Below, in pieces: positions 27,537 to 50,169 of a stretch of DNA of 64,000 nt. The notes below the pieces were generated by a model, which had not been told where the DNA came from, searched no databases, and saw only the letters and a program-made list of their open reading frames with translations. Within the stretch, counting starts at the first letter, position 1; each line of letters starts with the position of its first letter. The translations under genes were made by a program, and so were the position numbers. Origin of the DNA: an uncultured Clostridia bacterium (lineage in GTDB: Bacteria > Bacillota > Clostridia > TANB77 > CAG-465); the NCBI GenBank assembly GCA_947627255.1, contig CANQVI010000002.1, forward strand, positions 47 through 64,046. Reading direction: 5' to 3'.

Positions 27537-27695
27537 CTTTATCACCAAAATTTCACTTTACTATTATGTGAAATTCACCATTTATGATTATTATAATAGC
27601 GTAATTATTATTGTTACACACTTTTTTAGAAATTAATTTTATAAAAAAAACTATGCAAAAAAAAAGTGATATGATATAATCATTGTGGGGTGATA

Positions 27696-29952: not shown

Positions 29953-29955
29953 ATA

Positions 29956-30897: not shown

Positions 30898-30928
30898 AAT
30901 ATAGATAGCAAGGAAGGAGCTATTTAAA

Positions 30929-31510: not shown

Positions 31511-31521
31511 GAGGAAATGAA

Positions 31522-32493: not shown

Positions 32494-32497
32494 TAAA

Positions 32498-32536
32498 AAA
32501 GCACACCATATTTTTTATGGCGTGCTCTTTTATTTT
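32498..32536 (+). terminator. Rho-independent terminator after rmlB
   Basis: GCACACCATA-ttttt-TATGGCGTGC followed by TCTTTTATTTT. Confidence 0.75.
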
Positions 32537-32573
32537 AATCTAATTTTAAGCATAATTTATGCTTTTTCTTATG

Positions 32574-32602
32574 TTGAAATTTGTTATTATTAATGATATA
32601 AT
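32574..32602 (+). promoter_or_regulatory. Sigma-A promoter for the exporter/glycosyltransferase genes
   Basis: TTGAAA (32574-32579), 17 nt, TATAAT (32597-32602) with an upstream TG (TGaTATAAT). Confidence 0.55.
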
Positions 32603-33424: not shown

Positions 33425-33437
33425 GATGGAGGAAAAT

Positions 33438-34415
33438 ATGCAGGAAAAAAAGGTTGATATATTATTAGCTACATATAATGGAGAAAAATATTTAAAAGAG
33501 CAACTTGATTCAATTTTAAATCAAACATATGGTAATTTTAAATTAATTATATCAGATGATTGCTCTAAAGATTCTACTCGTGAGATACTTAGAGAATATG
33601 AAAAAAAGGATGATAGAATTGAACTTCATTTTCAAGAAAAGAATTTGGGCTCAAATAAAAATTTCGAATATTTATTATCCAAAGTTACAGCTGAATATTA
33701 TATGTTCTCTGATCAAGATGATGTTTGGTTACCAAATAAAGTAGAAATTTGTATGAATAAAATACAAGAAGAAGATTCAGATTTAGTTTTTACAGATTTG
33801 GAAGTAGTAGACCAAGATTTAAATACAATAAATAAATCATTTAATAAAAAAATGAAAGTTTATAGAAAAGCTAAAAAATATAAAGATTTTAGAATGGAAT
33901 ATTTATATAACTGTGTTACTGGATGTACTATACTTGCCAAAACTAGTATGATTAAAGAATATTTACCTTTGCCTGAAAATAAGGATATATTACATGATTA
34001 TTGGATAGCTCTTGTAACTTCATTAAAAGGAAGAATAAGTTATGTTGATGTAGCTACTATAAAATATAGACAACATGGTTCAAATCAAGTTGGAACAAAA
34101 AGATATACAGAAAAATTTAATGAATTTAATCAAAAAAGAGATTACATTATAGATTTAAAAATAAATAAATTTAAAACCTATTTGAAAAGGTCAGAAATCT
34201 TTTCGGACAAGCTAAATAAGTTAAATAGTGAAGCATTAGAGTATTTTGAAAGAGTTAAAAATTGTAATAATATAAATTTTAAAGGTTGGAAAACATATCA
34301 CGATATATTTAAATATGATTCTATAGGATATTATATATTTTATTTCATTTTTTATAATATACCTTGCATATTTAGATTTGGATATAATATATGGAAATTT
34401 ATAAAAAACAAATAA
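33438..34415 (+). CDS. GT2 glycosyltransferase, RgpB/GacC-like (probable rhamnosyltransferase)
   Basis: VDILLATYNGEKYLKEQLDSILNQTY, ISDDCSKDST, FSDQDDVWLPNK. The ATG at 33438 follows GGAGG. The upstream extension in the ORF track overlaps the permease. Confidence 0.7.
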   Translation: MQEKKVDILLATYNGEKYLKEQLDSILNQTYGNFKLIISDDCSKDSTREILREYEKKDDRIELHFQEKNLGSNKNFEYLLSKVTAEYYMFSDQDDVWLPNKVEICMNKIQEEDSDLVFTDLEVVDQDLNTINKSFNKKMKVYRKAKKYKDFRMEYLYNCVTGCTILAKTSMIKEYLPLPENKDILHDYWIALVTSLKGRISYVDVATIKYRQHGSNQVGTKRYTEKFNEFNQKRDYIIDLKINKFKTYLKRSEIFSDKLNKLNSEALEYFERVKNCNNINFKGWKTYHDIFKYDSIGYYIFYFIFYNIPCIFRFGYNIWKFIKNK

Positions 34416-34429
34416 GGATGTGTTAGTTA

Positions 34430-35758
34430 ATGAATGATGAAAATGTTATTGTTGTTGAGAATTTAGTTAAAGAGTATAAAATGTTTAACAGCAAAAAAGA
34501 TAGATTACTTGAAAGTATGGTACCAGGGTATCAAAAACATGATGTGTTTAGGGCAATGAATGATGTTAGCTTTACTGTAAAAAAAGGTGAAGTTCTTGGC
34601 GTACTTGGAAAAAATGGTGCTGGTAAATCTACACTTTTAAAGATGATTACAGGCGTTGTTACACCAACAAGTGGTAAATTAGAAGTTAAGGGTAAAATCA
34701 GTTCTTTACTTGAACTTGGTGCTGCATTTAATGCAGAACTTACAGGCTATGAAAATATATATCAACATGGTCAAATAATGGGCCTTACAAAAGCAGAAAT
34801 AAAGGCAAAAGAAAAAGAAATAATAGAATTTGCAGATATAGGCGAACATATTAGCCAACCTGTAAAGACATACTCTTCAGGTATGTTTGCAAGACTGGCT
34901 TTTGCTTGTGCTATAAATGTTGATCCAGATATTTTAATTGTTGATGAAGTATTGTCTGTAGGTGATATGGCATTTCAATTAAAATGTTTTAAAAAATTTG
35001 AGGAATTTAAAAAGAGAGGAAAAACTATATTATTTGTTACTCATAGCATAACAGATATTTTAAGAAATTGTACTAGAACTATAATAATAGATTCTGGAAA
35101 TAAAATATTTGATGGTGGAGTAAAAGATGGTGTTGAACTATATAAGAAAATAATAGTAGGACTAAAACCAGGTGATTTGAAAAAACAAACAGCTCTTGAA
35201 AAAGAAACAGAAAAAATTGAAGATGATGTAGAACTAAAAGATGAACAATTTAAAATTATAGATGATCCTGAAAATGAAACTTGGAAAGAGCATTTAATTC
35301 AAAACGATAAAGTAATAGATTATGGTAATGGTAAAGCTGAAGTTTTTGATTATGGTATTTTTAATGAAAAGGGAGAATATATGTCTTCAATAGAAAATGA
35401 TAAAGAGGTATATTTAAAATCTAGAATAAGATTTAATGAAGATGTTTTAGATCCTATTTTTACCATGACAATTAAAGACTTTAAAGGACTTGAAATGTGT
35501 GGTACAAATACATTAATTGAAAATGTATTAACAGGAAGTTTTAAAAAAGGTGATGTAGTCGAAGTTACATTTAAGCAAATGATAAAACTTGGACCTGGTA
35601 AATATACATTATCATTTAGTTGTACACATATTAGTGGTAATGGTGAACTTGAAGTTTTAAATAGAAAATATGATGCATTACTTGTAGAGGTAATTTCAAA
35701 TAAAGAATGTGTTGGATTTATAAGACTAGATTCTGAAATAACATTTGAAAAAAAATAG
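34430..35758 (+). CDS. ABC exporter ATP-binding protein (Wzt/TagH/RgpD-like) with a ~190-aa C-terminal extension
   Basis: Walker A GKNGAGKST, signature YSSGMFARLAFA, Walker B ILIVDEVLSVGD. The extension starts around aa 250, is beta-rich and resembles the Wzt C-terminal glycan-binding domain. Confidence 0.85.
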   Translation: MNDENVIVVENLVKEYKMFNSKKDRLLESMVPGYQKHDVFRAMNDVSFTVKKGEVLGVLGKNGAGKSTLLKMITGVVTPTSGKLEVKGKISSLLELGAAFNAELTGYENIYQHGQIMGLTKAEIKAKEKEIIEFADIGEHISQPVKTYSSGMFARLAFACAINVDPDILIVDEVLSVGDMAFQLKCFKKFEEFKKRGKTILFVTHSITDILRNCTRTIIIDSGNKIFDGGVKDGVELYKKIIVGLKPGDLKKQTALEKETEKIEDDVELKDEQFKIIDDPENETWKEHLIQNDKVIDYGNGKAEVFDYGIFNEKGEYMSSIENDKEVYLKSRIRFNEDVLDPIFTMTIKDFKGLEMCGTNTLIENVLTGSFKKGDVVEVTFKQMIKLGPGKYTLSFSCTHISGNGELEVLNRKYDALLVEVISNKECVGFIRLDSEITFEKK

Positions 35759-35817
35759 TGATAGAAGTGGCTTTTTTAGTGTATTTTTTGTGAAAAATAA
35801 TAAATTTTGTATTTAGC

Positions 35818-35850
35818 TATGTTATAATGTATGAGAAACATTATAGCATA
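35818..35850 (+). promoter_or_regulatory. 13-bp inverted repeat overlapping a TATAAT box in the gap between the ATPase gene and the methyltransferase gene
   Basis: TATGTTATAATGT-atgagaa-ACATTATAGCATA with one mismatch. It lies 32 nt upstream of the ATG at 35882. Confidence 0.45.
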
Positions 35851-35881
35851 ACTTTTATTACAATAAAGGGGAGTTGTTTAT

Positions 35882-37714
35882 ATGGATGTTTTGTATGAGC
35901 TATATGATAAGGATATACAATATGACAATTTATATGGAACTCAAGATGAAAAAGAAATAATAGATTTCATAAATACTCATAAAGATAAGGAAAAATTTAA
36001 AGAAGACGTATCTAAAATGTGTAATTCGTCTTTTCAAAATGAATTGTCAATTCGACATATTAATATGATAAATTGGTATCCTTTAGTACAAGGGAAAAAA
36101 GTATTAGAAGTACTTGGAAGATTTGGTGCTATAACTGAGTGGCTATTGAGTAAAGATATGGAAGTTACATGTATTGAAACTGTAAAGGAAAGAGCAGAAG
36201 CAAACAATGCAAGAAATAACTGCAAAAATCTACAGATTATATGTACTTCGGCTTTAATGGATATTGAGCTTAATGAAAAATATGATTATATTATATTACC
36301 TAATGTTATAGAGAATATAAAATCTTTTATGAATGTTAAGGATATATCACCTAAGTCTGCTGTAAAACTTCTTATAACTAAAATTTCTAAATATCTAAAT
36401 GACGATGGTAAAATATTAATATATACAGATAATAAATTTGCTATTAGAAATTTTGCTGGATATAAATCATCTAGTGAGGAAGTATCATATTCAAATATTA
36501 CAGGAAGTAATAAGGGAAGCAATAATAGATATTTTTCTAAAAAGGAATTGTGTGATATATTCTCAGAGTTAGGAATTAATGATTATAAGTTTTATTATTT
36601 ATTACCAGATTGTAAAAATACATCTGTAATATATTCAGATGATTATTTGCCAAGTATTAGCTCATCTAAACTAAAATATAATATTTGTTATAATAAATTT
36701 AATACAATTATTTTTAATGAAACAGATGCTATTTTGCAAGTTACAAATAGTGGCTATTTTGATATATTTGCTAATTCATATATGATTGAAATAGCAAAGG
36801 AAAAATGTGATATTAATTTTGTTAGTTTTAATAATTTTAGAGAAAATAAGTACCAACTTATTACAACTATGAAAAAAGAGGAAATTGTAAAAATACCAGT
36901 AAATGAAAATGAACAATTTCAAATAGCAAATATTAAGAAGAATATTGATTTATTAAAAGAATTGAAAATTAATACTGTTGATACATACGATGATGAATGT
37001 ATTAAGAGTAAATATACCAATGCTAGAACTTTGGACAAAATAATTGCTGACAAATTACTAAACGAAGGAGAAAAAGAATTTGTTAATGAAATAAAGAAAT
37101 GGTATGAGTATGTAGATAAAAAGCTAATTAAAGTTGATAACAATGAAAATTTACTTGAAAATAGCATATTTAAAAAATATAATATTGAAATTGAAGATGA
37201 AGTAATCCAAAAATTTAATTTTGTAAAAACAGGATTAATTGATATTATCTTTGAAAATGTTTTTGTTATAAATGATGAATATTATGTCTATGATCAAGAG
37301 TGGTATGAAGAAAACGTACCATTAGAATATATACTTTATAGAGCAATTCAAAGTCTATATTTTCATAATAAAAAAATACATAATGAATTTGATAAAGAAG
37401 AATTATTTAAACTATTTGGCATAGACGAATATATAAAATTATTTGACTTATTAGAACAAAATTGGCAAAATGCTATAATTGATAGAGATGTTTTAAGCTA
37501 TTTTGAAAGTACATATGAAGCTACAACAACTCTTGAAGAATTAAAAAATACTTGCAATGATGCAGATTTTTATCGCAGAATAATGAATGAACAAGCAAGT
37601 CAAATAAAAACACTTACTGAAGAAAATAACAATCTTAAAGTACAATTAAGAGATTTACAAGAAAATGTATTTCAAAAAATGCATAGAAAAATTTTTAGGA
37701 GAAAAGATGATTAA
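35882..37714 (+). CDS. Methyltransferase + kinase-like + C-terminal coiled-coil protein (WbdD-like architecture; putative glycan chain terminator)
   Basis: Class I SAM-MT motifs: KKVLEVLGRFGAI, VTCIE, YDYIILPNVIENI, DDGKILIY. A D-x4-N loop DIIFEN (aa 454-459) plus D471 (YVYDQEW), with kinase-fold spacing. C-terminal heptad-like RRIMNEQASQIKTLTEENNNLKVQLRDLQENVFQKM. Confidence 0.6.
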   Translation: MDVLYELYDKDIQYDNLYGTQDEKEIIDFINTHKDKEKFKEDVSKMCNSSFQNELSIRHINMINWYPLVQGKKVLEVLGRFGAITEWLLSKDMEVTCIETVKERAEANNARNNCKNLQIICTSALMDIELNEKYDYIILPNVIENIKSFMNVKDISPKSAVKLLITKISKYLNDDGKILIYTDNKFAIRNFAGYKSSSEEVSYSNITGSNKGSNNRYFSKKELCDIFSELGINDYKFYYLLPDCKNTSVIYSDDYLPSISSSKLKYNICYNKFNTIIFNETDAILQVTNSGYFDIFANSYMIEIAKEKCDINFVSFNNFRENKYQLITTMKKEEIVKIPVNENEQFQIANIKKNIDLLKELKINTVDTYDDECIKSKYTNARTLDKIIADKLLNEGEKEFVNEIKKWYEYVDKKLIKVDNNENLLENSIFKKYNIEIEDEVIQKFNFVKTGLIDIIFENVFVINDEYYVYDQEWYEENVPLEYILYRAIQSLYFHNKKIHNEFDKEELFKLFGIDEYIKLFDLLEQNWQNAIIDRDVLSYFESTYEATTTLEELKNTCNDADFYRRIMNEQASQIKTLTEENNNLKVQLRDLQENVFQKMHRKIFRRKDD

Positions 37715-39458
37715 TTTGGAAAAAGAAAAATTAAAAAGATTATATTATTTTAAAAGAAATAATTATTATATTAATAAAAATTATAAAAAATGGATACAAA
37801 AAAACGAGCCTAATGGGGATGAATTAGAAAAGCAAAGAGAAGAAAAATTTGCTAATTCTCCATTAATTAGTGTAGTTATTCCTATGTATAATACTGATGT
37901 GGAATATTTTAAGATATTAATTGACTCATTAACTGCACAAACTTATAGTAATATAGAGATTTGTATAGCAGATGGTTCACCTTATGAAAATCCACAAATA
38001 TTAGATATTATTAATAATGATAATAGAATTATATATAAGCATTTAGAAGAAAATGGTGGAATATCTTTTAACACAAATGAGGCAATAAAAATGGCAAAGG
38101 GTGAATATATAGCATTTGTAGATCATGATGATGTATTACCTCTATTTGCTTTTTATGAAGTAGTTAATGCGATTAACCAAAATCCAAATGTTGAATTTAT
38201 ATATTCAGATGAGGATATAATTATTGGAAATAAAAGATGTAATCCAAGCTTTAAACCAGATTTTTCTATTGATACATTAAGAAGTTATAATTATATTTCT
38301 CATTTATCTGTTGTAAAAAAAGAGCTACTAAATAGAATAGGTGGTCTTGATAGTGAATTTGATGGAGCGCAAGATTATGAGCTTATATTTAGAATTATAG
38401 AAAATACTTCTAATATAGTTCATATTTCAAAAATATTATATCATTGGAGGTTTCATAGAAATTCTACTTCTGCAAATTCTAATTCTAAGACTTATGCATT
38501 TGAGTCTGGAAGAAGGGCTATACAGAAACATTTAGAAAGATTAAATATACCAGCAACTGTTACTAGCGAAAAAGAAGTAGGAAGATATAGAGTTAAATAT
38601 AATATAATATCAGAAGATAAAGTAAGCATATTAATACCTAATAAAGATAATGTAGAAGATTTGAAAAAATGTATAAACTCAATTTTAAAATCTACATATA
38701 GTAACTATGAAATAATTGTAATTGAAAATAATAGCACTTCAAAAGAGATTTTTGATTACTATGATGAAATAAATAAAATAGAAAATATTAAGGTAGTAAA
38801 GTTAGAGATTAATGAATTTAATTATTCTAAAATAAATAATTATGGCGTAAAATTTGCTGAAGGAAAATACTTATTATTTTTAAATAATGATACAGAAGTG
38901 ATTGAAAGCGGATGGATTGAAGAAATGTTAGGCTTGGCTCAAAGAGAAGATGTTGGAATAGTTGGAGCTAAATTATTATATCCAGATAATACTGTTCAAC
39001 ATGCAGGAGTTATTATTGGCATGGGCGGAGTAGCAGGACATATTAATAAAGATATTTCATGTGATGACCCTGGTTATTTTTCTAGAGCATCAGTAATTAA
39101 TAATTATTCTGCTGTAACGGCGGCATGTCTTATGACTAAAAAAGAAATTTTTGAAAAAATAAATGGATTTGACGAAAATTTAAAAGTTGCTTTTAATGAT
39201 GTAGATTTATGTTTGAAAATAAGAAGTTTAGGATATTTATGTGTATTTACACCATATGCTAAACTATATCATTTTGAATCTAAAACAAGAGGATATGAAG
39301 ATACTAAAGAAAAAAAAGCAAGATTTGCTGGAGAAATAGAGCTATTTAAAAAGAAATGGAAAGATGTTTTAGATAGTGGTGATCCATGTTTTAATAAAAA
39401 TTTAAGTTTAAATTCTGCTAAATTTATTATAGATAAAAAGGGTAGAATTAATCATTAA
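37707..39458 (+). CDS. Bi-domain GT2 glycosyltransferase (two GT-A modules in one chain)
   Basis: Module 1: ISVVIPMYNTDVEYFKILIDSLTAQTY...FVDHDD. Module 2: VSILIPNKDNVEDLKKCINSILKSTY...FLNNDTEV...GAKLLYP. The ATG at 37707 follows AGGAG and overlaps the previous stop (ATGATTAA). Confidence 0.8.
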   Translation: MINLEKEKLKRLYYFKRNNYYINKNYKKWIQKNEPNGDELEKQREEKFANSPLISVVIPMYNTDVEYFKILIDSLTAQTYSNIEICIADGSPYENPQILDIINNDNRIIYKHLEENGGISFNTNEAIKMAKGEYIAFVDHDDVLPLFAFYEVVNAINQNPNVEFIYSDEDIIIGNKRCNPSFKPDFSIDTLRSYNYISHLSVVKKELLNRIGGLDSEFDGAQDYELIFRIIENTSNIVHISKILYHWRFHRNSTSANSNSKTYAFESGRRAIQKHLERLNIPATVTSEKEVGRYRVKYNIISEDKVSILIPNKDNVEDLKKCINSILKSTYSNYEIIVIENNSTSKEIFDYYDEINKIENIKVVKLEINEFNYSKINNYGVKFAEGKYLLFLNNDTEVIESGWIEEMLGLAQREDVGIVGAKLLYPDNTVQHAGVIIGMGGVAGHINKDISCDDPGYFSRASVINNYSAVTAACLMTKKEIFEKINGFDENLKVAFNDVDLCLKIRSLGYLCVFTPYAKLYHFESKTRGYEDTKEKKARFAGEIELFKKKWKDVLDSGDPCFNKNLSLNSAKFIIDKKGRINH

Positions 39459-39477
39459 TATAAAGGAGTGATAATAA

Positions 39478-41448
39478 ATGAAAAACGATGTTGAAAATAA
39501 ATTAATTACTGTAATCGTTCCATGTTACAATGTAGAAAAATATATTGAAAAATCGATAGATTCAATTATGTCACAGTCATATAAAAATATAGAAACTATA
39601 TTAATTGATGATTGTTCTACTGATGGAACTTATGATAAGATAGTAAAATTAAAAGAAAAGTATAATGATAAAATAATAGTTATAAAAAATGAGAAAAATA
39701 GTGGAGCAGCATATTCTAGAAATCAGGCTTTAAAAATTGCTAAAGGTGATTACATAGGATTTGTTGATCCAGATGATTATATTGATGAAGATTATTATTT
39801 AAAACTATATGAGAGTATACAAAATAATAATGCTTGGATTGCAATTACAGATATATTTTTAGTTGAAGAAAACGGAAATCCAATACTTGGACCAATCAAA
39901 TGCTATGAAGGTGATAAGTTAAATATAGAATCTGTACTTAATTGTGGTCTAAGTGCATCTCCATGTAACAAGTTGATAAGAGCAGATATAATTAAAAATT
40001 ATCCGTTTTTAGAAGGAAAAATGAATGAGGATGTTGCCTCTATAATTCCTACTCTTGTTATGTGTAAAGATAATTTATCTTATGCACATGATATAAAATA
40101 CTATTATGTGCAAAGAAAAAACTCAATGCAAAATTCAGAATTTTCTGAAAAAAGATTTGATATGTTTGAGGCTTTAAACGTTTGTTTAGAAAGAATAAAG
40201 AACGAAAAAAACTATAAAAAATATTTAGATATTGTTTTATATCATCAAGTTTTAATGTTGTATACTTGCGTTATAATAGAAATTGATGATGAAGAAAAAA
40301 GAAAAGAAATAATAAGTAAATTTATAAAAATGCAAGAACAATATGAATTATATAAGAATCCATATGCCAAAATATATGTAAGATCACAAAGAAAAGTATT
40401 AAGATTATATTATTATATGATTATTAAATTATTAAGATTTAAATCTGCTAATTTAATTAATAACGTAATAAAATTAAAAGACTCAATATATGAATTTTGC
40501 AGACTTACAAAAAGAGTATATAAAAGAATGATAGGTAAAAATGTTTTAAAATATAATATTGGACTAAAAGATGTTATAAAAGCAGCTAAAAAGCAAAATA
40601 AATTACCAGAAAGTGAAGTAAAGATATCTGTAGTAATTCCTAATTATAACTATGCAAATTTTATGTATCAAAGATTATATAGTATTTTAAGTCAGAAAGT
40701 AAAATTAAAAGAAATTATAATTCTTGACGATTGTTCAAAAGATAATAGTAGAGAAGTTATAGATAAAATTGTAGATAAAATTTCTAATTATATTTCTATA
40801 AAGAAAATATATAATGAACAAAATAGTGGCTCTCCATTTAAACAATGGAAAAAAGGCTTTAAAGAGGCAACAGGAGATTATGTATGGATTGCCGAAGCAG
40901 ATGACTATTGTTCAAATAAAATGCTTACTAAATTAACAGAAAAAATGAAAGAAAATAAGAATATACAGATTGCATATGTAGATACTGCTTTTATTGATAA
41001 ATATGGAAATATTATATTAAAAACTATAAAAAATGAAATAGACATAAGACATACAGGTCATTGGGATAGCTCTTTTGTTGAAAATGGAATGTATGAAATT
41101 GAAAAATATTGTTTCTTAAATTGTATTATAGCAAATGTATCATCATGTTTAATAAAAAGAGATAATTATGATGATGTGTTTGAAAAAATTTCTTCTTACA
41201 GGCAAGCTGGAGACTGGTTATTTTATAATTTAGTTATGAAAAGAGGAGATATTTGCTTTATTGCAGACCCTATAAATTATTATAGAGTTCATGGAAATAA
41301 CGTAACTAGTCTTACAAAAAAACAAAAACATTTTGATGAAATTGTTAGAATTCATGATGAAAATAGAAAAATAGTAGATTTTACACCATGGCATGAAGAA
41401 GAAGTACAAAAGAGATATGAGTTCTTAAAGAAAGTATGGAAATTGTAA
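39478..41448 (+). CDS. Second bi-domain GT2 glycosyltransferase
   Basis: Module 1: ITVIVPCYNVEKYIEKSIDSIMSQSY...IDDCSTDGT...FVDPDD. Module 2: ISVVIPNYNYANFMYQRLYSILSQ...LDDCSKDNS...IAEADD. Confidence 0.8.
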   Translation: MKNDVENKLITVIVPCYNVEKYIEKSIDSIMSQSYKNIETILIDDCSTDGTYDKIVKLKEKYNDKIIVIKNEKNSGAAYSRNQALKIAKGDYIGFVDPDDYIDEDYYLKLYESIQNNNAWIAITDIFLVEENGNPILGPIKCYEGDKLNIESVLNCGLSASPCNKLIRADIIKNYPFLEGKMNEDVASIIPTLVMCKDNLSYAHDIKYYYVQRKNSMQNSEFSEKRFDMFEALNVCLERIKNEKNYKKYLDIVLYHQVLMLYTCVIIEIDDEEKRKEIISKFIKMQEQYELYKNPYAKIYVRSQRKVLRLYYYMIIKLLRFKSANLINNVIKLKDSIYEFCRLTKRVYKRMIGKNVLKYNIGLKDVIKAAKKQNKLPESEVKISVVIPNYNYANFMYQRLYSILSQKVKLKEIIILDDCSKDNSREVIDKIVDKISNYISIKKIYNEQNSGSPFKQWKKGFKEATGDYVWIAEADDYCSNKMLTKLTEKMKENKNIQIAYVDTAFIDKYGNIILKTIKNEIDIRHTGHWDSSFVENGMYEIEKYCFLNCIIANVSSCLIKRDNYDDVFEKISSYRQAGDWLFYNLVMKRGDICFIADPINYYRVHGNNVTSLTKKQKHFDEIVRIHDENRKIVDFTPWHEEEVQKRYEFLKKVWKL

Positions 41449-41481: not shown

Positions 41482-44292
41482 ATGAAAAAATTAAATGTAG
41501 CTTTTAAAGACATTATATTTTTAATTATTAATCTAATATTAATTCTTTTAATAGGGCTATCTATAGTAAATATTTTTATTTTTAAGGATAATTTACCAAT
41601 ATTATTTAATTATAAAATTGTTATTGGATTTATTTTATTATATATAGGTCTAATAGCTGGTAGCATTATTGCTTTTCAAAAACTAGAGAATAAACTTTCA
41701 AAAAAGACTAAAAAAATAGTAAAATTTGTAAGTGCTATTATAGTTTTGGTATTACAAGTAATTATCACTATTTGTATTATTAGAAAAGCTGGATGGGATT
41801 ACAATGAAATTATGTACTCAGCTTTAGACCTATTAAATGGAAATCCACCTAGTATAGAATATTTTTCTAGATATCCAAACAATTCATTTTTGTTACTGGC
41901 AAAAGAATTGCTATTTAGAATATCATACTTATTTAATATAAAAGCGATATTAGTTGTAGATGTTATTTTTAACGTAATAGCTATTGATGTAGCAATAATA
42001 TATATTTATAAAATTTGTAAAAAATTATTAGGAAATAAATTAGCTTATTTATCATTTTTATTTTCAGTTCCAGTGCTTGGATTTACACCATATATTACAG
42101 TACCTTATTCTGATACATTATCTTTAGCTTTTCCTATATTAGTTTTGTATAATTATATTTTATACAAAAAATCTGAAGTAGATAAGGTTAAGTATATAGT
42201 TTTAATGGGAGTATTTTCTACTATTGGACTATTAATAAAACCTACAAATATTATAATATTAATTGCTATTTCAATAATTGAAATAATTAATTTGATTCAA
42301 AAAGCAATAAATAAAAATAAAGAAACTTTTAGAAAAGAAAATATTAAAAGATATTTACGAAATATATGTATTATAGTAATATTACTATTAGTAATTTATA
42401 GTTCATTTAATGCATATAAGAGAATAAGATTTGGTGAAAGCATTACTGGAGAATTAGAAAAGGAAAATGAATTTCCACTTACGCACTTTATGATGATGGG
42501 ACTTAAACCTACTGACGTAGATGGTAAATATTATGGATACTATTTTGAAGAAGATGTAAATGCTACAGCATCACATATAGGCACTTCTGAAAAAGTTAAA
42601 TACAATATATCTGAAATAAAAGCTAGACTTAAAAAAATGGGTGTTAGTGGATATTTAAAATTTTTATATGATAAATATACTGTTAGTTCATGTGATGGAT
42701 CTTTCTTTTATGGAAATGAAGGAACTTTCTTTATTGAGGAGCCATTATTAAATAATAATTTTGCAAAGAATATCCAACAATATATGTATATAGATGGAGA
42801 TAAGTATTATTCTGTTACTATCCAAATTATGCAATCATATTGGATTATGATTTTGATAGGTATATTAATATGTTGTATAAAAAATATATTTAAAAAATGT
42901 GATGAAACTAATTATATATTAAAACTATCAATAATAGGAATTATATTGTTTATTTTACTATTTGAAGGAAGATCTAGATATTTATTTAATTATCTACCTA
43001 TATTCATAATATTATGTATATATGGTATATATGAACTAATTGCTATTATTAAAAATAGTAATTTTAATAAAGAAAAAATAAAAGATATATATTTAAAAAT
43101 AAATAAATTTGAAAATAAAGTAAAAGATAGAATTTTAGATAAAAAGAATATAAAAATAATATTTTTAGCTATTGTTGTATTACTAGCTATTGTAGCAAGA
43201 GTATTAATGATAAAATATGTATCAGGTGACTATGTAAGTTTTTTGGAAAAATGGTTCGAACAAATAAAAGAACAGGGAGGATTTACTGCATTAAAAAATA
43301 ATATAGGTGACTATAATGTACCTTATTTAACAATACTTGCAATATTAACTTATCTTCCTATACCATCATTAATTTCTATAAAATTAGTATCAATTATTTT
43401 TGATTTTGTTTGTGCCTTTTTTGCAGGATTATTAGTATATGATATTTTAGGTAAAAATGAAAATGCAAAGTTTACATCAATTATTACATTTGCTGTAATG
43501 TTGTTTTTACCAACAATATTAATGAATTCAAGCCTATGGGCTCAATGTGATACAATTTACGTATCATTTATATTAATTAGTTTATATTTGATAAGAAAAA
43601 ATAAAGTAGTTTTATCATTTGTATCCTTAGGTTTGGCTTTTGCATTTAAGCTACAATTTATTTTTATTATGCCTTTATATGTTTTACTTTACTTAAAAGA
43701 TAAGAATATAAGTTTATTACACTTTTTAATTATTCCTATAGTGAATTTTATTTTGTGTATGCCAGCTATTATTCAAGGTAGAGGGATAATAGATTGCATG
43801 ACTATATATTTTAGGCAAACAGAAACATACCATATGTTAACATTAAATTACACTAATTTATACAATATTTTTGGAAAATTTTTTGATTATCAATCAGGAG
43901 TTTGTATAATTTTTACAATAATAGTATTAGGAATTGTATCAATTTATCTTTTATATAAAAATGTGGATATAAAAAATAACATTATTCCTATTGCATTATT
44001 GTATTCAATACTCATCGTATTCTTTTTGCCAAAAATGCATGATAGATATGCATTTTTAGCTGAAATACTAGCAGTTATATATGTTATGATATATAAGAAA
44101 TCATATTATTTTCCAATTACACTTTTAACGTGTGCTGTATATGGGTATTATTGTTTCTTAGCACCAAATGTTATAAATGGAGATTATATTTCTTTATTCT
44201 CAATTGTTGAATTTATTGCTATTGCTAAATTTACATGGGATACATTAAAAGATTTAAAAAATAATAATTATAATATAAAATATATAGAATAA
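41482..44292 (+). CDS. 936-aa fusion of two polytopic GT-C-type membrane glycosyltransferase modules
   Basis: The N-half (aa 1 to ~535) is paralogous to the next gene: YPNN, Y(S/T)DTLS, and RSRY near the end. A ~35-aa charged linker follows. The C-half starts VSGDYVSFLEKWFEQIKEQGGFTALKNNIGDYNVPYL and has ~10 more TM segments (PIG-V/Gpi18-like or DUF2029-like pattern). Confidence 0.65.
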   Translation: MKKLNVAFKDIIFLIINLILILLIGLSIVNIFIFKDNLPILFNYKIVIGFILLYIGLIAGSIIAFQKLENKLSKKTKKIVKFVSAIIVLVLQVIITICIIRKAGWDYNEIMYSALDLLNGNPPSIEYFSRYPNNSFLLLAKELLFRISYLFNIKAILVVDVIFNVIAIDVAIIYIYKICKKLLGNKLAYLSFLFSVPVLGFTPYITVPYSDTLSLAFPILVLYNYILYKKSEVDKVKYIVLMGVFSTIGLLIKPTNIIILIAISIIEIINLIQKAINKNKETFRKENIKRYLRNICIIVILLLVIYSSFNAYKRIRFGESITGELEKENEFPLTHFMMMGLKPTDVDGKYYGYYFEEDVNATASHIGTSEKVKYNISEIKARLKKMGVSGYLKFLYDKYTVSSCDGSFFYGNEGTFFIEEPLLNNNFAKNIQQYMYIDGDKYYSVTIQIMQSYWIMILIGILICCIKNIFKKCDETNYILKLSIIGIILFILLFEGRSRYLFNYLPIFIILCIYGIYELIAIIKNSNFNKEKIKDIYLKINKFENKVKDRILDKKNIKIIFLAIVVLLAIVARVLMIKYVSGDYVSFLEKWFEQIKEQGGFTALKNNIGDYNVPYLTILAILTYLPIPSLISIKLVSIIFDFVCAFFAGLLVYDILGKNENAKFTSIITFAVMLFLPTILMNSSLWAQCDTIYVSFILISLYLIRKNKVVLSFVSLGLAFAFKLQFIFIMPLYVLLYLKDKNISLLHFLIIPIVNFILCMPAIIQGRGIIDCMTIYFRQTETYHMLTLNYTNLYNIFGKFFDYQSGVCIIFTIIVLGIVSIYLLYKNVDIKNNIIPIALLYSILIVFFLPKMHDRYAFLAEILAVIYVMIYKKSYYFPITLLTCAVYGYYCFLAPNVINGDYISLFSIVEFIAIAKFTWDTLKDLKNNNYNIKYIE

Positions 44293-44326
44293 TTTAAAAA
44301 TTCATTTATAGGAGTTGACAGTTATT

Positions 44327-45919
44327 ATGGAAGATAAGAGCAGTAAATTTTATAAAATTACTGGTAAATTAATAGATGTTTTTAAATTATTTTTTGTAGT
44401 AATATTTAGTATAATTGTTTTTAAAACTTTTTTTAATAATAATAGAGTAAAAATGTATGATTATAATCCATTGCTACTTATATTGTTAGTAATAGGCTAT
44501 TTAATTATAGTTCTATTTCTTTATAAAGTTATTACAAGAATTTCTTTTAAACATAAAAAAAGTATAGTTGCCATTATATTTGGAATTACAGTATTATTGC
44601 AATTAGTATTTTCATATTTTTTTATGGTAATTCCAAGTTGGGATGTAGGCTTTGTATATGATATTGTTACTAATTTTGATATGTCAATTTCATCTAAGAT
44701 TACAACCTCATATCTATATCAATATCCTAACAATATAGGTATAACTGTATTATTATCTGTTGTATTTAATTTTTTTAAATTAATAAATATTGATTCTTAT
44801 ACTGTTATAGGTATTGGTTTAAATATATTATTTATAGATTTGGCAATATTATTTTTATATAAAGCAGCAAAAGAATTATTTGGATATAATAGAGCAATAT
44901 TTGTATTAATCTTGATGTGTACAATGATACCAATCTATACGTATGCACCAATATTTTATACTGATACATTATCAATGCTGTACCCTATATTATTACTGTA
45001 TTTGTATATTTTATTAAGTAAAAAGAGTAATGAAAATAGCAGTAAAAAAATAAATAAAGAAATTATATTTCTTAGTATTGCTATGGGGATAACAGTAGCT
45101 ATTGGTATACAAATTAAAGTGACAATCGTTATACTATTTGTTGCGTTAATAATTATAGAATTACTTTTTTTAAAATCTAAATACATTTTTAAAGTAGCTG
45201 GAATTGTTGTATCAACAATTTTACTTCTATTATTTGCTAAAAATACTTACTTAAAAAATATAAAAGACCCAATTGTACAATATTTAAATGAATTTCCGTA
45301 TACTCACTGGGTAATGATGGGATTAAATGATAATCCGGACAATGGCACAATAGGTGGATTTTATGGAAATGATAATATATATACAGATTTATTACCAGAC
45401 GGAAAAAATGGTAGAAAGGAAGGAAATATAAAAGTTATAAAAGAAAGATTATCGAATTTTATAGCAAAGCATGATTTATTAAGATTTGAGTTATCTAAGA
45501 TGGTGTACACTTGGGGAGATGGCACATATTATGCACCAGAAAAATTAAGAAGAAGTCCTGTAAGGGAAGGAATTCAACATCAGTTTGTATTACAAAATGG
45601 TAAATATTCATATGTATATATGTACTATTCTCAAATTCAGCATATAAGTTTATTAATATTTATGATTATTTCTATGATAATAAATTATAGAAATAGGAAA
45701 GAGTTTAATGATATTTTGAAAGATAAAGTTAATCTTATTATTACTTTAAGCATTTTTGGATTACTAATTTTCTTAATTATTTGGGAGACTCGATCTAGAT
45801 ACATTGTAAATTTTATACCTATAATGGTTTTCGCTAAATTTTATGGTATAGATAAATTATATGATTATATATTAATAAAAAGAAAAAAATTATTACCAAA
45901 AAGTGATAATATTCAATAA
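44327..45919 (+). CDS. Polytopic GT-C-type membrane glycosyltransferase (ArnT/PMT/GacL-like), paralog of the N-half of the preceding gene
   Basis: ~12 TM segments. Shared motifs YQYPNN, FYTDTLSMLYPILLLY, WETRSRYIVNFIP. Start ambiguous (TTG 44315 or ATG 44327). Confidence 0.65.
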   Translation: MEDKSSKFYKITGKLIDVFKLFFVVIFSIIVFKTFFNNNRVKMYDYNPLLLILLVIGYLIIVLFLYKVITRISFKHKKSIVAIIFGITVLLQLVFSYFFMVIPSWDVGFVYDIVTNFDMSISSKITTSYLYQYPNNIGITVLLSVVFNFFKLINIDSYTVIGIGLNILFIDLAILFLYKAAKELFGYNRAIFVLILMCTMIPIYTYAPIFYTDTLSMLYPILLLYLYILLSKKSNENSSKKINKEIIFLSIAMGITVAIGIQIKVTIVILFVALIIIELLFLKSKYIFKVAGIVVSTILLLLFAKNTYLKNIKDPIVQYLNEFPYTHWVMMGLNDNPDNGTIGGFYGNDNIYTDLLPDGKNGRKEGNIKVIKERLSNFIAKHDLLRFELSKMVYTWGDGTYYAPEKLRRSPVREGIQHQFVLQNGKYSYVYMYYSQIQHISLLIFMIISMIINYRNRKEFNDILKDKVNLIITLSIFGLLIFLIIWETRSRYIVNFIPIMVFAKFYGIDKLYDYILIKRKKLLPKSDNIQ

Positions 45920-45971
45920 AAAAATATGATATAAAGAAAAATATGTTATAATATATTAGGGAGGGAGATAG

Positions 45972-46388
45972 GTGAATAAGATAAAAGACTTATTTATAAA
46001 ATACAAAGAGATAATAAACTACGGTATATTTGGTGTATTAACAACAATAGTAAATTATGTATCTTATATTATATTTACAAGATTATTTAGTGTTGATATG
46101 CTTATAAGTAATTTAATAGCTTGGTTTTTATCTGTTGTCTTTGCATTTATAACTAATAAACTTATTGTATTTAATAGTAAAGATTTATCTTTAAAAGTAA
46201 TTACTAGCGAAGGAGCTAAGTTTATGATGGCTAGAGTCTTTTCATTATTCTTAGATATGGCTATACTATTTGTTATGGCAGATATTATGAAGATGAATGA
46301 CTTAATTGTTAAAATAATTTCTAACGTTATTGTTATAATAGTAAATTATGTATTGAGCAAATTTTTAATTTTTAAAAATAATAAATAA
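45972..46388 (+). CDS. GtrA family membrane protein (polyprenyl-phosphate-sugar handling/flippase-like)
   Basis: 138 aa, 4 TM. YGIFGVLTTIVNYVSYIIF...NYVLSKFLIF pattern of the GtrA family. GTG start after GGGAGGGAG. Confidence 0.8.
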   Translation: MNKIKDLFIKYKEIINYGIFGVLTTIVNYVSYIIFTRLFSVDMLISNLIAWFLSVVFAFITNKLIVFNSKDLSLKVITSEGAKFMMARVFSLFLDMAILFVMADIMKMNDLIVKIISNVIVIIVNYVLSKFLIFKNNK

Positions 46389-46414
46389 TATAATAAAAAG
46401 GGGAGAAATTGACG

Positions 46415-47359
46415 ATGAAAGATAAAAAGATATCTGTTGTAATACCTATGTATTATGAAGAAGAAGTAGCAAGAGAATGTTATACTAGAATGAAAAAAGT
46501 TTTAACTGATTTAAAAAATTATGAATATGAAATGATTTTTGTAAATGATGGTAGTAAAGATAAAACATTAGAAATATTAGAAGAAATAGCAAAAGAAGAT
46601 AAAAATGTAAAAGTTATATCTTTTGCTAGAAACTTCGGACATCAATGTGCTGTAACAGCAGGGTTAAAGTATGTTACAGGTGATGCAGTATGCATAATTG
46701 ATGCAGATTTACAAGATCCACCAGAATTAATAGGGGACATGCTAAAGAAGTGGGAAGAAGGATATGAAGTAATATATGGAAAAAGAAAGAAAAGAGATGG
46801 AGAATCTTTCTTTAAACTATTTACTGCTAAGATGTTTTATAAAACACTAAACTTTTTCTCTGAAGTAGATATTCCAAAAGATACAGGTGACTTTAGATTA
46901 GTAGACAGAAAAGTTGTTGATACTATAAATTCAATGCCTGAGCATAATAAATTTTTAAGAGGATTATTTAGCTGGGTTGGATATAAACAATATGCTTTTG
47001 AATATGAAAGAAAAGAAAGATTTGCAGGTAAGACAAAATATCCACTTAAGAAAATGTTAAAATTAGCTTCTGATGGAATAATAAGTTTTTCAACTAAACC
47101 ATTAAAAGTAATTGGATGTTTAGGAATTATTAGTATATTTCTATCATTCTGCATTTTAGTTTATGCTTTAGTAGCATATATATTTAAATTTAATGGACTT
47201 ACAGCTGGATGGACATCAATTATGGTATGTGTTACTTTCTTTTCTGGTGTACAACTTACATCATTATGGATTTTATCTGAATATATAGGTAGAATATATG
47301 ATGAAAGTAAAGCCAGACCACAATATATTATTGCAAAAACTATAAATATAGATGAATAA
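46415..47359 (+). CDS. GtrB/ArnC/CsbB-like GT2 polyprenyl-phosphate glycosyltransferase
   Basis: ISVVIPMYYEE, VNDGSKD, RNFGHQ, IDADLQDPPE, and two C-terminal TM helices. Confidence 0.88.
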   Translation: MKDKKISVVIPMYYEEEVARECYTRMKKVLTDLKNYEYEMIFVNDGSKDKTLEILEEIAKEDKNVKVISFARNFGHQCAVTAGLKYVTGDAVCIIDADLQDPPELIGDMLKKWEEGYEVIYGKRKKRDGESFFKLFTAKMFYKTLNFFSEVDIPKDTGDFRLVDRKVVDTINSMPEHNKFLRGLFSWVGYKQYAFEYERKERFAGKTKYPLKKMLKLASDGIISFSTKPLKVIGCLGIISIFLSFCILVYALVAYIFKFNGLTAGWTSIMVCVTFFSGVQLTSLWILSEYIGRIYDESKARPQYIIAKTINIDE

Positions 47360-47379: not shown

Positions 47380-48246
47380 ATGAAAAAAAGGGATTATTTA
47401 TTATATATTTTAATAGCAATTATATGCATATTAGTAATTTTAATTTTTGCAAAAGAAGTATTATCAATGAAAAGACTTAATCCAGTAGCAGCAAAAGTAG
47501 AAGAAAACAAAATTAATATAGATACAAATAATGTTAAAATAGAAGAATTATCAGATTACTCTGTAAGAGCTAATGTGCCAATTTTCATGTATCATTGGAT
47601 AAAAGATGATACAGGAGACTATGCTTATCCTGAAAATATGGTTAAGCCTGATGAATTGAAAAAGCAAATGGACTATTTACATGAAAATAACTATGATGTT
47701 ATATTTGTATCAGAACTAAATTCTTTACAACATTATGAAAAGCCAGTTATTTTAACTTTTGATGATGGTTGGGAAGATGTATATAGAATTGCTTTCCCTT
47801 ATGCTAAAGAGCTAAATATGAAGTTTTGTATGTATATTATAACTGATTTAGTTGGAACACCTGGATATTGTACTATAGAAGAACTAAAAGAAATGAAAGA
47901 GAGTGGACTTGTAGAGTTAGACTCACATACATTATCTCATCCATATCTAAATGAGTTATCTGCAGAAGAAGTAGAAAATGAACTTGTTGGTTCTAAGAAT
48001 TACTTAAAAGAAAATTTAGGTGTTGATTCTAAAGTAATTTGCTATCCATCAGGAAGGCAAAATGCTACAGTGCTTAATATAGTATCTGAAAACTATAATT
48101 ATGGACTTCTTATGGATGGAGGAGTTTTTAGGTATAATAGTGATTTTTCTAATTTATATTTAATACCAAGAATTTATGCAATGCGTAGTATGACTCTAGA
48201 TACTTTCATAAATTATTGTGAAACATCACTAGTAAATGTAATTTAA
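47380..48246 (+). CDS. Membrane-anchored polysaccharide deacetylase (CE4 / NodB homology domain)
   Basis: N-terminal TM. LTFDDGWEDVY (the TFDD motif), DSHTLSHPYL (HxxxH), and a YPSGR motif. Confidence 0.85.
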   Translation: MKKRDYLLYILIAIICILVILIFAKEVLSMKRLNPVAAKVEENKINIDTNNVKIEELSDYSVRANVPIFMYHWIKDDTGDYAYPENMVKPDELKKQMDYLHENNYDVIFVSELNSLQHYEKPVILTFDDGWEDVYRIAFPYAKELNMKFCMYIITDLVGTPGYCTIEELKEMKESGLVELDSHTLSHPYLNELSAEEVENELVGSKNYLKENLGVDSKVICYPSGRQNATVLNIVSENYNYGLLMDGGVFRYNSDFSNLYLIPRIYAMRSMTLDTFINYCETSLVNVI

Positions 48247-48257
48247 AGGAGAAAAGA

Positions 48258-49151
48258 ATGAAATTTGCAGTTATAGTACTTAATTATAATGACCATGAAA
48301 ATACAATTAAATACATAAATGTGATAAAAAATTATAATATCATAGATAAAATAGTAATTGTAGATAATAATTCCACATTTAAAGATGAAGTTAAAATTCT
48401 AAAAGAGTTAGAAGATGATAAAGTAGAAGTCATTTCTTCAGATAAGAATGGTGGATATGCGTATGGTAATAATATAGGGCTAAAATACTTAGAAAAAATA
48501 GATAATTATGATTATGTTGCAATATCTAATCCAGATGTTTTTGTTGATGAAGATACAATAAAAAAATGTATAGAGCATCTTGAAAATAGCAAAAAGGTTG
48601 CAATTGTTGCACCTAGAATGTGGTTTACTAGTGGCCCTGCTAGAAGGGCTGCATGGAAAAAGAGAACTCCAATTATTGATATTGCAAATTCAACTAGACT
48701 TACTGAATTAGTATTATTTCCTTTTTTTAAGAAGGGCGAATATACAAAAAAAGACTATGAAAATGAAGTATTAAAGGTTGACTGTACAGCTGGTTCATTT
48801 TTTATTGCAAAATATGATTCTCTAAAGAAAATAGACTTTTTAGATGAAAATACTTTTCTATTTTATGAAGAAGATATTTTAGGTAGTATGTTAAAAAAAG
48901 CAGGACTTGAAATACATTTACTACCACAACTTAAATTTATGCATTATGATAGTCAGACAATTGGAAAATTGATGAACATGTTTAAAAAAATAGACATTTT
49001 ATTTGATAGTAAAATATATTATCAAAAAAATTATAATAACGCTAACATATTTGTTATAATTATATTGTATATATTAAAATATTGGAGAAAAGTAGAACTT
49101 ATATTTGAAATTCCAATTAGAAAAATATATCAAAAAATTAAAAAAGTATAG
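48258..49151 (+). CDS. GT2 glycosyltransferase (WbbL/rhamnosyltransferase-like)
   Basis: [40 protein letters not shown]. Confidence 0.7.
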
Positions 49152-49164
49152 AGGAGAGAAGAAA

Positions 49165-50169
49165 ATGGGAAAAATTTTAGTAACAGGTGGAGCTGGATAT
49201 ATTGGTACACATACTAGTGTTGAACTACTAAATGCTGGTAAAGATATTGTTGTATTAGATAATTTTTCAAACAGTAACCCACAAGCATTAGAAAATGTAA
49301 AAAAGATTACAGGCAAAGATTTTAAATTTTATGAAGGAAATATGATAGATAAAAATATTCTAGAAAAAATATTTTCTGAAAATGAAATAGACGCTGTTAT
49401 AGATTTTGCAGCATATAAAGCAGTAGGTGAATCTGTACAAAAACCAGTTGAATACTATACTAATAACGTTTCAACAGTGCTTGTATTACTTGACGAAATG
49501 AAAAAACATAATGTAAAAACTTTAGTTTTTTCATCTTCTGCAACTGTATATGGAGATCCAGAAGTTATTCCAATAACAGAAGAATGTAAAGTTGGAGGTA
49601 CTACTAATCCTTATGGTACATCAAAATTAATGGTAGAACAAATATTACAAGATTTATATAAATCAGACAATGATTGGAATATTGCAATACTTAGATATTT
49701 TAATCCAGTAGGAGCTCATGAAAGTGGTCTTATTGGTGAAGATCCAAAAGGTGTACCTGCAAATCTAATGCCATATATTTCTAAAGTAGCAGCAGGAAAA
49801 TTAAAAGAATTATCTGTATTTGGAAATGATTATGACACAAAAGATGGAACAGGTGTAAGAGACTATATCCATGTAGTAGATTTAGCTGTTGGACATTTAA
49901 AAGCATTAGAAAAATTAAATGCAGATAAAAGAGGAATGCATATATATAATCTTGGAACTGGTACTGGATACAGTGTTCTTGATATGGTTAAAGCATTTGA
50001 AACAGCAAATAATATAAAAATACCATATAAAATAGCACCAAGAAGACCAGGAGATATTGCAACATGTTATTCTGATCCTAAAAAAGCTAAAGAAGAATTA
50101 GGATTTGAAACTAAGAAAAGTTTAGAAGATATGTGTAGAGATAGCTGGAATTTTGAAAGCAATCATTAG
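49165..50169 (+). CDS. galE: UDP-glucose 4-epimerase
   Basis: [50 protein letters not shown]. The ATG at 49165 follows GAGGAGAG; the upstream ORF-track extension overlaps the previous gene. Confidence 0.93.

Follow-up and report, generated by a model that had tools for sequence, protein, structure and literature searches.

In the characterised three-component glycosylation systems (CsbB/GtcA/YfhO, GtlA/GtlB, SccN/SccM, GacI/GacL and lactococcal Csd) a GtrB-type synthase and a GtrA-type flippase serve a polytopic glycosyltransferase of the C fold (GT-C). GT-C enzymes of this kind add rhamnan side chains from undecaprenyl-phosphate sugars (Und-P-sugars), inverting the anomeric configuration (PMC11754754). 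The Pgf system of Streptococcus mutans has one synthase, PgfS, and two GT-C enzymes, PgfM1 and PgfM2, both of the YfhO type (10.1101/2024.05.05.592596); the SccN product is used by SccM and by a further transferase; GttA serves wall teichoic acid (WTA) as well as lipoteichoic acid (LTA), and GtcA is a shared flippase. Gram-positive wall polysaccharide side chains set phage receptors, antigenic type and envelope properties, and their GT-C enzymes are poorly catalogued. Here we describe a locus in a 64,000-nucleotide stretch (the window) of contig CANQVI010000002.1, from an uncultured Clostridia bacterium (assembly GCA_947627255.1), where a single GtrA/GtrB pair accompanies three GT-C modules, two of them fused in one 936-aa protein.

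Four + strand genes make up the core of the locus: the open reading frame (ORF) for the fused double GT-C protein (41482-44292, 936 aa); ORF2, for a second GT-C_A protein of the CHIM family (44327-45919, 530 aa from its ATG, or 534 aa from a TTG at 44315); the gene of a small GtrA-family membrane protein, the putative flippase for the lipid-linked sugar (45972-46388, 138 aa); and that of a GtrB-type polyprenyl-phosphate sugar synthase (46409-47359, 316 aa, or 314 aa from the ATG at 46415 chosen by gene callers). The GtrA protein matches Pfam PF04138 (E = 1.1e-23, 84 bits against a cutoff of 26.1) and is the sole such ORF in the window. The synthase joins a GT2 domain of the GT-A fold (Pfam Glycos_transf_2, E = 3e-36) to two C-terminal hydrophobic segments, predicted to be transmembrane (TM) helices, and is also the sole protein of its kind in the window. 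It aligns at full length (residues 7-310) with the solved Synechocystis GtrB (PDB 5ekp, E = 8.5e-92); its best NCBIfam match is PgfS (NF047588) with 335.9 bits, below the cutoff of 500, and ArnC gives 172 bits. The count for the 64-kb window is thus one GtrA, one GtrB-type synthase, one GT87-like module and two CHIM modules, and the single GtrA/GtrB pair of the original prediction, which had been made from the sequence alone, is borne out.

The locus has a GtrB-type synthase, a GtrA-family protein and polytopic GT-C folds, and in these respects agrees with the GtrA/GtrB/GT-C three-component systems. Like the characterised systems it is set in a rhamnose-polysaccharide cluster with an ABC exporter; unlike them it has GT-C modules of the CHIM and GT87-like families rather than of the YfhO or GacL types, and three of these per synthase, with two fused. 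We think it fairly likely that the locus handles extracytoplasmic decoration within a gene cluster for a rhamnose-containing wall polysaccharide that depends on an ABC transporter, with one donor serving three GT-C modules.

Two polytopic halves and a charged linker had been predicted in the 936-aa protein, and all three were found; the linker has 31 aa (527-557; 43060..43152, + strand), so that the predicted length of about 35 aa and position at nt 43070-43160 were approximately right. The N-terminal module (aa 1-526; 41482..43059, + strand) is a PMT_2-type GT-C_A protein of the CHIM family (Pfam PF27792, 'CHIM_prot'), a family that the precomputed annotation gives for both the N-half and ORF2; the CHIM hidden Markov model (HMM) matches the N-half with E = 1e-180. 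Pairwise BLASTP of the first 533 residues with ORF2 gave 28% identity over 505 columns (E = 1e-36), confirming that the two are paralogues, and the motifs by which the paralogy had been recognised (YPNN, Y(S/T)DTLS and RSRY..N(Y/F).P) occur in both: YPNN at residues 131 and 133, YSDTLS at 209 and YTDTLS at 211, RSRYLFNYLP at 497 and RSRYIVNFIP at 489. Pfam PMT_2 matches the N-half with 32.9-34.7 bits and ORF2, marginally, with 26.5 bits (cutoff 26.1), and the N-half also matches Pfam Glyco_transf_22. TIGR03766, the XrtG-associated glycosyltransferase, scores 205 bits with the N-half and 69 bits with ORF2, both below its curated cutoff of 500 bits; by these scores the two proteins are relatives of TIGR03766 and not equivalogs. 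No exosortase was seen among the annotated genes of the window, not every ORF having been scanned.

The N-half was modelled with AlphaFold2 (AF2) from an alignment of 61 sequences, at a mean confidence score (pLDDT) of 92.8, and a Foldseek comparison of the model with the PDB returned ArnT, AglB, STT3, Pmt1/Pmt2, PglB and AftA, all of the GT-C_A class. The model has 12 predicted TM helices and a large extracytoplasmic domain of about 120 residues (aa 318-439). Columns invariant among CHIM proteins (alignment A3) are D106, N133, N134, Y209, D211, K253, R497, R499 and Y500; ORF2 is a row of this alignment and shares all family-invariant residues. AF2 models were made for the N-half and the C-half separately, and the GT-C fold of ORF2 is taken from its membership in A3. 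The N-half and ORF2 thus resemble ArnT, the protein mannosyltransferases (PMT) and the oligosaccharyltransferases (OST) in their GT-C_A fold and PMT_2 signature, and appear from the model to differ from them in that the first catalytic loop of CHIM proteins is preceded by an additional helical hairpin at the N-terminus. ORF2 is at most about 30% identical to any homologue of the N-half and has orthologues of its own (P0188, 98%; P0189, 60%), which rules out a recent duplication of the N-half; judged by sequence, ORF2 is an old paralogue in a different CHIM subfamily.

The C-terminal module (aa 558-936, plus the linker tail; 43153..44292, + strand) is of the GT87-like or 'Gpi18-like' GT-C_B type. 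The last 403 residues of the 936-aa protein are unrelated to the N-half and to ORF2 (E of 0.14 and 0.49). Standalone homologues of 385-410 aa gave 496 matches, and the GT87-like HMM matches the C-half with E = 2e-160; elsewhere the family is named 'Gpi18-like mannosyltransferase' or 'glycosyltransferase 87 family', and the closest match in reference genomes is 46% identical. Pfam GT87 (PF09594) scores 13.4 bits (E = 0.067), below its gathering threshold of 25 bits, and is matched by 38 of 72 aligned family members (E <= 0.01), so by profile score the family is a sister to GT87 rather than a clear member.

The AF2 model of the C-half (pLDDT 93.4; predicted TM score, pTM, 0.92) resembles GPI-MT-I (9wno, TM score 0.62) and ALG6 (6snh, 0.66), with PIG-U and ALG3 also matched; PimE (9dm5) gives TM scores of 0.61/0.64 (E = 2.3e-3), and PIG-M, ALG6 and ALG3 are comparable. 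In both models the top PDB matches were exclusively GT-C proteins, with a probability of 1.00, so the modules do not fall into non-glycosyltransferase families and their assignment as GT-C has survived; the further claim that the C-half is a different GT-C type is confirmed by GT-C_B folds (PIG-M, ALG6, PimE, ALG3) for this half and GT-C_A folds for the N-half type. The CHIM and GT87-like profiles found no solved structure among PDB sequences, and the fold comparison was used instead. Twelve TM helices are predicted for the C-half, and the first loop, with DY at residues 583 and 610, is predicted to lie outside and holds the invariant SGDY aspartate, D583. The other invariants (alignment A2) are W591, the GDYN block at 609-612, Q688, D690, H853, R855 and Y856; D610 of the GDYN block is conserved, though outside the invariant list. 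The C-half shares its fold (TM 0.61-0.66) and, by prediction, a conserved aspartate in the first outside loop with PimE (GT87), ALG3, ALG6 and PIG-M, all of which take their sugar from polyprenyl-phosphate monosaccharides and typically add it to a glycan already in place. It differs from them in its low identity (11-16%), in failing the Pfam GT87 threshold, and in a context that points to a GtrB-made Und-P-sugar and a wall polysaccharide and not to phosphatidylinositol mannosides, glycosylphosphatidylinositol or N-glycan precursors.

The linker is lysine-rich (K+R = 10, D+E = 5) and predicted to be cytoplasmic. Alignment of the fusion with the split orthologue pairs P0010/P0070, P0006/P0080 and P0002/P0074 (A1) shows that it is the C-terminal tail of a standalone CHIM protein run into the cytoplasmic N-terminal tail of a GT87-like protein. 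The linker lacks a Shine-Dalgarno sequence, and no start codon is in frame ahead of residue 576, which already lies in the first helix of the C-half, so that the C-half cannot be a separate product and an internal restart yielding it is ruled out. Topology was predicted by combining the helices of the AF2 models with charge counts. Each half would have 12 TM helices (24 in total), with all half termini and the linker inside and the RSRY loop and the 318-439 domain outside. K+R residues make up 27 of 97 positions inside and 29 of 328 outside (N-half, 13/47 and 20/209; C-half, 14/50 and 9/119), a bias that fits a cytoplasmic linker and outward catalytic loops. A family-invariant aspartate stands in the predicted first outside loop of all three modules: D106 in both CHIM modules and D583 in the C-half each come just after a predicted outward-going helix, a placement made from helix boundaries and charge bias and not from coordinates. 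On these models the fusion is topologically sound, with two complete GT-C modules in the same orientation and their active-site loops facing outward.

At least 11 contigs, drawn from several ENA and Logan samples, encode the 936-aa protein with two residues different from the window copy. Six fetched contigs of other strains have 99.5-99.7% nucleotide identity to the window, with 35-78 single-nucleotide polymorphisms (SNPs) and an intact junction. An exhaustive HMMER search of 1.84 billion cluster representatives gave 6423 matches at E <= 0.001, and among the best 150 there was one further full-length fused protein, P0308 (931 aa, 58% identical, residues 8-936 aligning with 8-931). Its locus (L091) is a syntenic cluster from a related species with about 79% nucleotide identity to the window. 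With the junction intact in six near-identical contigs and an orthologue in a related species, the fusion, which the original prediction had flagged as a possible assembly or frameshift artefact, is not one. The two fused proteins are 45% identical in the N-half, 48% in the linker and 77% in the C-half, and the fusion has stayed intact despite this divergence of the halves, so it has been kept through a long separation. In P0302, the third fused protein (905 aa), the CHIM part is of the ORF2-like subfamily; its neighbours in L092 are genes for an ABC transporter and a GT2/GT1 enzyme and a GtrB-like gene, and the fusion probably arose independently. The fused CHIM::GT87-like protein is rare.

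At L091 12837-14407 the orthologue of ORF2 is split into ORFs of 246 and 280 aa by a frameshift near 13481, which sits in an A-rich tract of a contig with 6.8x coverage; either the third module is decaying there or the frameshift is a sequencing error.

Split relatives indicate how the fusion may have arisen. In L001 a CHIM gene of 535 aa ends in a stop codon and is followed, after 17 nt with GGAG, by a GT87-like gene of 409 aa, and then by GtrA, GtrB, deacetylase, GT2 and GalE genes in the order of the window; in L002 genes of 551 and 399 aa lie 6 nt apart, before GtrA and GtrB. Comparison of these sequences suggests that the fusion arose by loss of the stop codon and the intergenic spacer between neighbouring CHIM and GT87-like genes.

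CHIM, GT87-like, GtrA and GtrB genes recur as separate genes in relatives (L001, L002 and L096), and in the last of these, a syntenic relative with one GtrB, about 4 kb separates the CHIM gene from the GT87-like gene. We also surveyed 80 reference-genome loci with a GT87-like gene, from Clostridia, Bacilli, Saccharibacteria, Bacteroidales, Anaerolineae and Actinobacteria. A strong GtrB match lay within 7 kb in 22 of the 80, and about seven had both CHIM and GtrB nearby (L013, L015, L033, L038, L052, L058 and L087). L087 (266-5552, Lactobacillaceae metagenome-assembled genome CAWUZD010000053.1) has GT87-like, CHIM, CHIM and GtrB-like genes in a row and is the unfused equivalent, in an unrelated lineage, of the window's set of three GT-C modules and one synthase. 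Each family is also found alone with its own GtrB-like gene: CHIM with a GT2 (GtrB-like) gene next to leuS in Enterococcus faecalis (L095), and GT87-like with flanking GtrB-like genes in L097. From this distribution both types are likely to be autonomous Und-P-sugar-dependent transferases, often held in one locus with one synthase.

Other fusions were seen: CHIM-GtrB, GT2-CHIM, CHIM-GtrA, acyltransferase_3-CHIM (one from Turicibacter sanguinis) and tandem GT87-like-GT87-like (P0251, P0259, P0262, P0271, P0209, P0214, P0215, P0222, P0004, P0212, P0282, P0294, P0304, P0311, P0320, P0322, P0336 and P0393). Fusion among partners of the GtrA/GtrB pathway is recurrent, and the CHIM-GtrB, GT2-CHIM and CHIM-GtrA proteins, read as Rosetta-stone fusions, tie the CHIM family to that pathway. 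No GT-C/GT-C fusion came to light in a literature search on fused or tandem GT-C enzymes, and one on TIGR03766 and on Gpi18-like, DUF2029 or GT87 proteins in Firmicutes found no characterised Firmicute member of either family.

These comparisons do not bear out the premise of the original prediction that such systems are normally 1:1:1, since a synthase, donor or flippase is shared in the cases of Pgf, SccN, GttA and GtcA and in the separate-gene cassettes of relatives. The arrangement had also been called unusual. This holds for the covalent fusion of two GT-C modules, which is rare; it does not hold for three GT-C modules per synthase, given the unfused set of L087 and the published cases of sharing.

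The core genes lie at the 3' end of a polysaccharide cluster that starts with a phosphoglucomutase/phosphomannomutase (PGM/PMM)-type mutase gene (27690-29078), apart from which no mannose-activating genes were seen in the window. It continues with rmlD, rmlA, rmlC and rmlB of the dTDP-L-rhamnose pathway (29092..32493, + strand), all four above NCBIfam equivalog cutoffs. Genes for backbone synthesis and export follow (32630..41448, + strand), encoding a Wzm permease (ABC2_membrane), a GT2 enzyme, a Wzt ATPase (ABC_tran, with a Wzt_C glycan-binding domain), a methyltransferase-like protein and two double-GT2 enzymes of 583/597 aa and 656 aa; four proteins contain GT2 domains overall. With its rml genes, Wzm/Wzt and GT2 enzymes, this is an ABC-transporter-dependent cluster for a rhamnose-containing wall polysaccharide. 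No initiating transferase and no LytR-CpsA-Psr (LCP) ligase were found among the annotated genes.

Three genes follow gtrB. The first encodes a membrane-anchored polysaccharide deacetylase of carbohydrate esterase family 4 (CE4; 47380..48246, + strand; Polysacc_deac_1, E = 6e-26, with weak PgaB/IcaB matches), which directly follows gtrB in L001, L005 and L091 as well. It could de-N-acetylate an N-acetylhexosamine (HexNAc) side chain or linkage unit, a hint that the donor might be a HexNAc. The second encodes a GT2 glycosyltransferase of 297 aa (48258..49151, + strand; Glycos_transf_2, E = 3e-13, with a weak match to a rhamnosyltransferase subfamily), in which no C-terminal hydrophobic segments were found, so that it is without the GtrB-type TM pair. 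The last gene of the cluster encodes the UDP-glucose 4-epimerase GalE (49165..50169, + strand, 334 aa; TIGR01179 451 bits against a cutoff of 262, NF007956 455 bits against 394).

Between rmlB and wzm (32492-32602) there is a terminator-like hairpin with a 19-bp stem and then the best promoter-like site of the region (11/12 matches, with TG); this pair suggests that wzm through galE form one long transcription unit. No convincing + strand terminator was found between wzm and galE. The promoter scan is at chance level in this AT-rich DNA (170 sites found, 167 expected).

By analogy with the characterised three-component systems (PMC8035078, PMC11754754), decoration at the locus may proceed as follows. 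At the inner membrane face the single GtrB-type synthase would charge undecaprenyl phosphate with one sugar taken from a UDP-sugar; the neighbouring galE suggests that this sugar is a hexose or HexNAc of galacto or gluco configuration. The single GtrA protein would flip the lipid-linked sugar to the outer face, where the three GT-C modules would transfer it, with inversion, onto the polymer exported by Wzm/Wzt. The fused pair may carry out two coupled transfers, in which the faster-evolving CHIM module would prime the backbone and the GT87-like module would extend or flank the new sugar; the separate CHIM paralogue, ORF2, may decorate another site.

For the 936-aa protein itself our proposal is tentative and, we judge, possible rather than probable: a machine with two active sites, coupling GT-C_A to GT-C_B, that makes a two-sugar branch by channelled priming and extension from one Und-P-sugar donor. 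The C-half is far more conserved than the N-half (77% and 45%), as would be expected if its acceptor were the newly added sugar and not a variable backbone, and GT-C_B enzymes typically extend an existing sugar, which favours the extension role for the GT87-like module. Pmt1-Pmt2 and EmbA-EmbB are precedents for two GT-C subunits acting as a physical pair, which the fusion would make covalent; those pairs, however, are unfused paralogues of one family, whereas the window fuses GT-C_A to GT-C_B.

Several points weigh against the one-donor, prime-and-extend account. Sequential transfer is argued from analogy and from the unequal divergence of the halves, and donor sugar and acceptor are read from gene context and analogy rather than from biochemistry. 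The predicted positions of the catalytic residues likewise derive from helix boundaries and charge bias, not coordinates. With 64 kb of the genome in view, a GtrB-type synthase encoded elsewhere could feed one of the modules, and the best curated match of the GtrB present is PgfS, a protein-glycosylation synthase, though below cutoff. In L096 the spacing of about 4 kb between the CHIM and GT87-like genes implies that physical coupling is not obligatory, and the frameshift in the ORF2 orthologue of L091 may mean that the third module is dispensable.

The main rival is parallel decoration, in which the modules would add the same sugar at different backbone positions or to different polymers (LTA and wall polysaccharide) in no coupled order, and the fusion would secure co-expression and 1:1 stoichiometry; this is a real possibility, if on balance a doubtful one. 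Both families occur alone with a GtrB-like partner, so each can presumably act on a primary acceptor, and the separated genes of L096 agree with independent action. In S. mutans one donor supplies both SccM and a further transferase, which act at different rhamnose positions, and Listeria GttA serves two polymers. Against this, the fusion has arisen or persisted in at least two, probably three, lineages over deep divergence, and since operon neighbours are already co-expressed, its retention argues for a functional coupling beyond co-expression.

The other explanations are lesser. It is unlikely that the modules draw on different donors, at least one of them, most plausibly the GT87-like module, using another Und-P-sugar or an undecaprenyl-pyrophosphate-linked oligosaccharide made elsewhere. 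No strong GtrB match lay within 7 kb in 58 of the 80 GT87-like loci, the closest solved folds use dolichyl-phosphate mannose, dolichyl-phosphate glucose or polyprenyl-phosphate mannose, and our analysis covers 64 kb of the genome; but GtrA and GtrB directly follow the GT87-like gene in the closest relatives (L001 and L002), GtrB-like genes flank it in L097, and a GtrB-like gene follows the P0302 fusion.

Protein O-glycosylation by a Pgf-like machine, acting on surface or membrane proteins and not on a polysaccharide, is quite unlikely. The locus does resemble S. mutans Pgf (PgfS, PgfE, PgfM1 and PgfM2, in which PgfM2 adds to the PgfM1-dependent product) in having a GtrB-type synthase, an epimerase and two or more GT-C modules in one place; PgfS is the best NCBIfam match of GtrB, the CHIM modules match PMT_2 and fold like PMT and OST, and an LPxTG adhesin is encoded in the window. 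The PgfS match of 336 bits, however, is below the 500-bit cutoff, and Pgf, which glycosylates proteins, has separate GT-C enzymes of the YfhO type, whereas Pfam and profile scans gave no YfhO match for any of the three modules. In four syntenic relatives the genes are embedded in a cluster for making and exporting polysaccharide, apparently as part of its transcript; the adhesin gene is 31 kb away, and there is no adjacent Ser/Thr-rich substrate. With profile scores below the respective cutoffs, the system counts neither as a TIGR03766 equivalog nor as a clear Pfam GT87 member, nor as a Pgf system.

That one half is non-catalytic, serving the other as an acceptor-binding or scaffolding partner, is very unlikely. 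PIG-U, which has a GT-C-like fold without transferase activity, is among the fold matches of the C-half, the N-half has the 120-residue outside domain that the C-half lacks, and it has been speculated in a review that a small GT-C enzyme may depend on a second protein to recognise its acceptor (PMC8035078); yet both families keep invariant acidic and basic residues in predicted outside loops, and each occurs alone with a GtrB-like partner. Finally, an artefact of assembly, sequencing or frameshift, or a decaying pseudogene, has next to no probability: the data are short-read metagenome assemblies and the neighbouring ORF2 orthologue of L091 carries a frameshift, but several samples have yielded at least 11 contigs with an identical or near-identical 936-aa ORF and SNP-level differences, the fused orthologue with 58% identity aligns from one end to the other, and the linker is in frame, 48% conserved and without an internal start site.

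Several other features of the window were recorded. The Wzt gene with Wzt_C (34430-35758, + strand) precedes that of a 610-aa protein (35882-37714, + strand) with weak N-terminal methyltransferase matches and a coiled-coil-looking C-terminal tail, which has a 609-aa counterpart in L097; the two resemble the WbdD-type chain terminator and cap-reading exporter of E. coli O9a, here in a Gram-positive setting. After galE comes a gene (50433-52430, + strand), with a 43-aa ORF just upstream of it, for a protein of 665 aa that is rich in glutamate and lysine and matches no family; such a protein follows galE in relatives too (L005; 751 aa in L091 and 631 aa in L096). A 354-aa polytopic membrane protein is encoded at 53612-54676 (- strand), and its L096 orthologue adjoins the GT87-like gene. 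We weighed it as a possible fourth GT-C module and rejected kinship with the GT87-like family, the hhalign probability being 0.5% and Pfam giving no match. The adhesin gene (6127-10413, + strand) encodes a 1428-aa surface protein with an N-terminal thioester (TED) domain, 12 SpaA-type repeats and an LPKTG signal, a putative covalent adhesin. Scans of the window for tRNAs and Rfam families found nothing.

Upstream of the cluster lie mreBCD, PBP2, rodA and a gene for an 87-aa SpoVS homologue identified by eye (10945-11208, + strand); L001 too has an annotated SpoVS gene. The DNA is about 26% GC. The host is an uncultured low-GC Gram-positive, and the SpoVS homologue suggests a spore-former lineage.

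The locus leaves the general picture of GtrA/GtrB/GT-C systems unchanged. It does connect the GtrA/GtrB pathway with two uncharacterised GT-C families on three independent grounds: their conserved gene neighbourhood, their Rosetta-stone fusions with GtrB and GtrA, and their fusion to one another. For structural work the fused protein is a stable complex ready to hand, and as one gene with two active sites it offers a genetic handle on how extracytoplasmic transferases share one lipid donor. If all three modules share the donor, the polymer would carry up to three differently linked residues of one sugar in the same anomeric configuration. Should the 936-aa protein be the two-active-site machine proposed here, it would correspond, in covalent form, to the Pmt1-Pmt2 or EmbA-EmbB heterodimers and would give the CHIM/TIGR03766 and Firmicute GT87-like families their first functional assignment.

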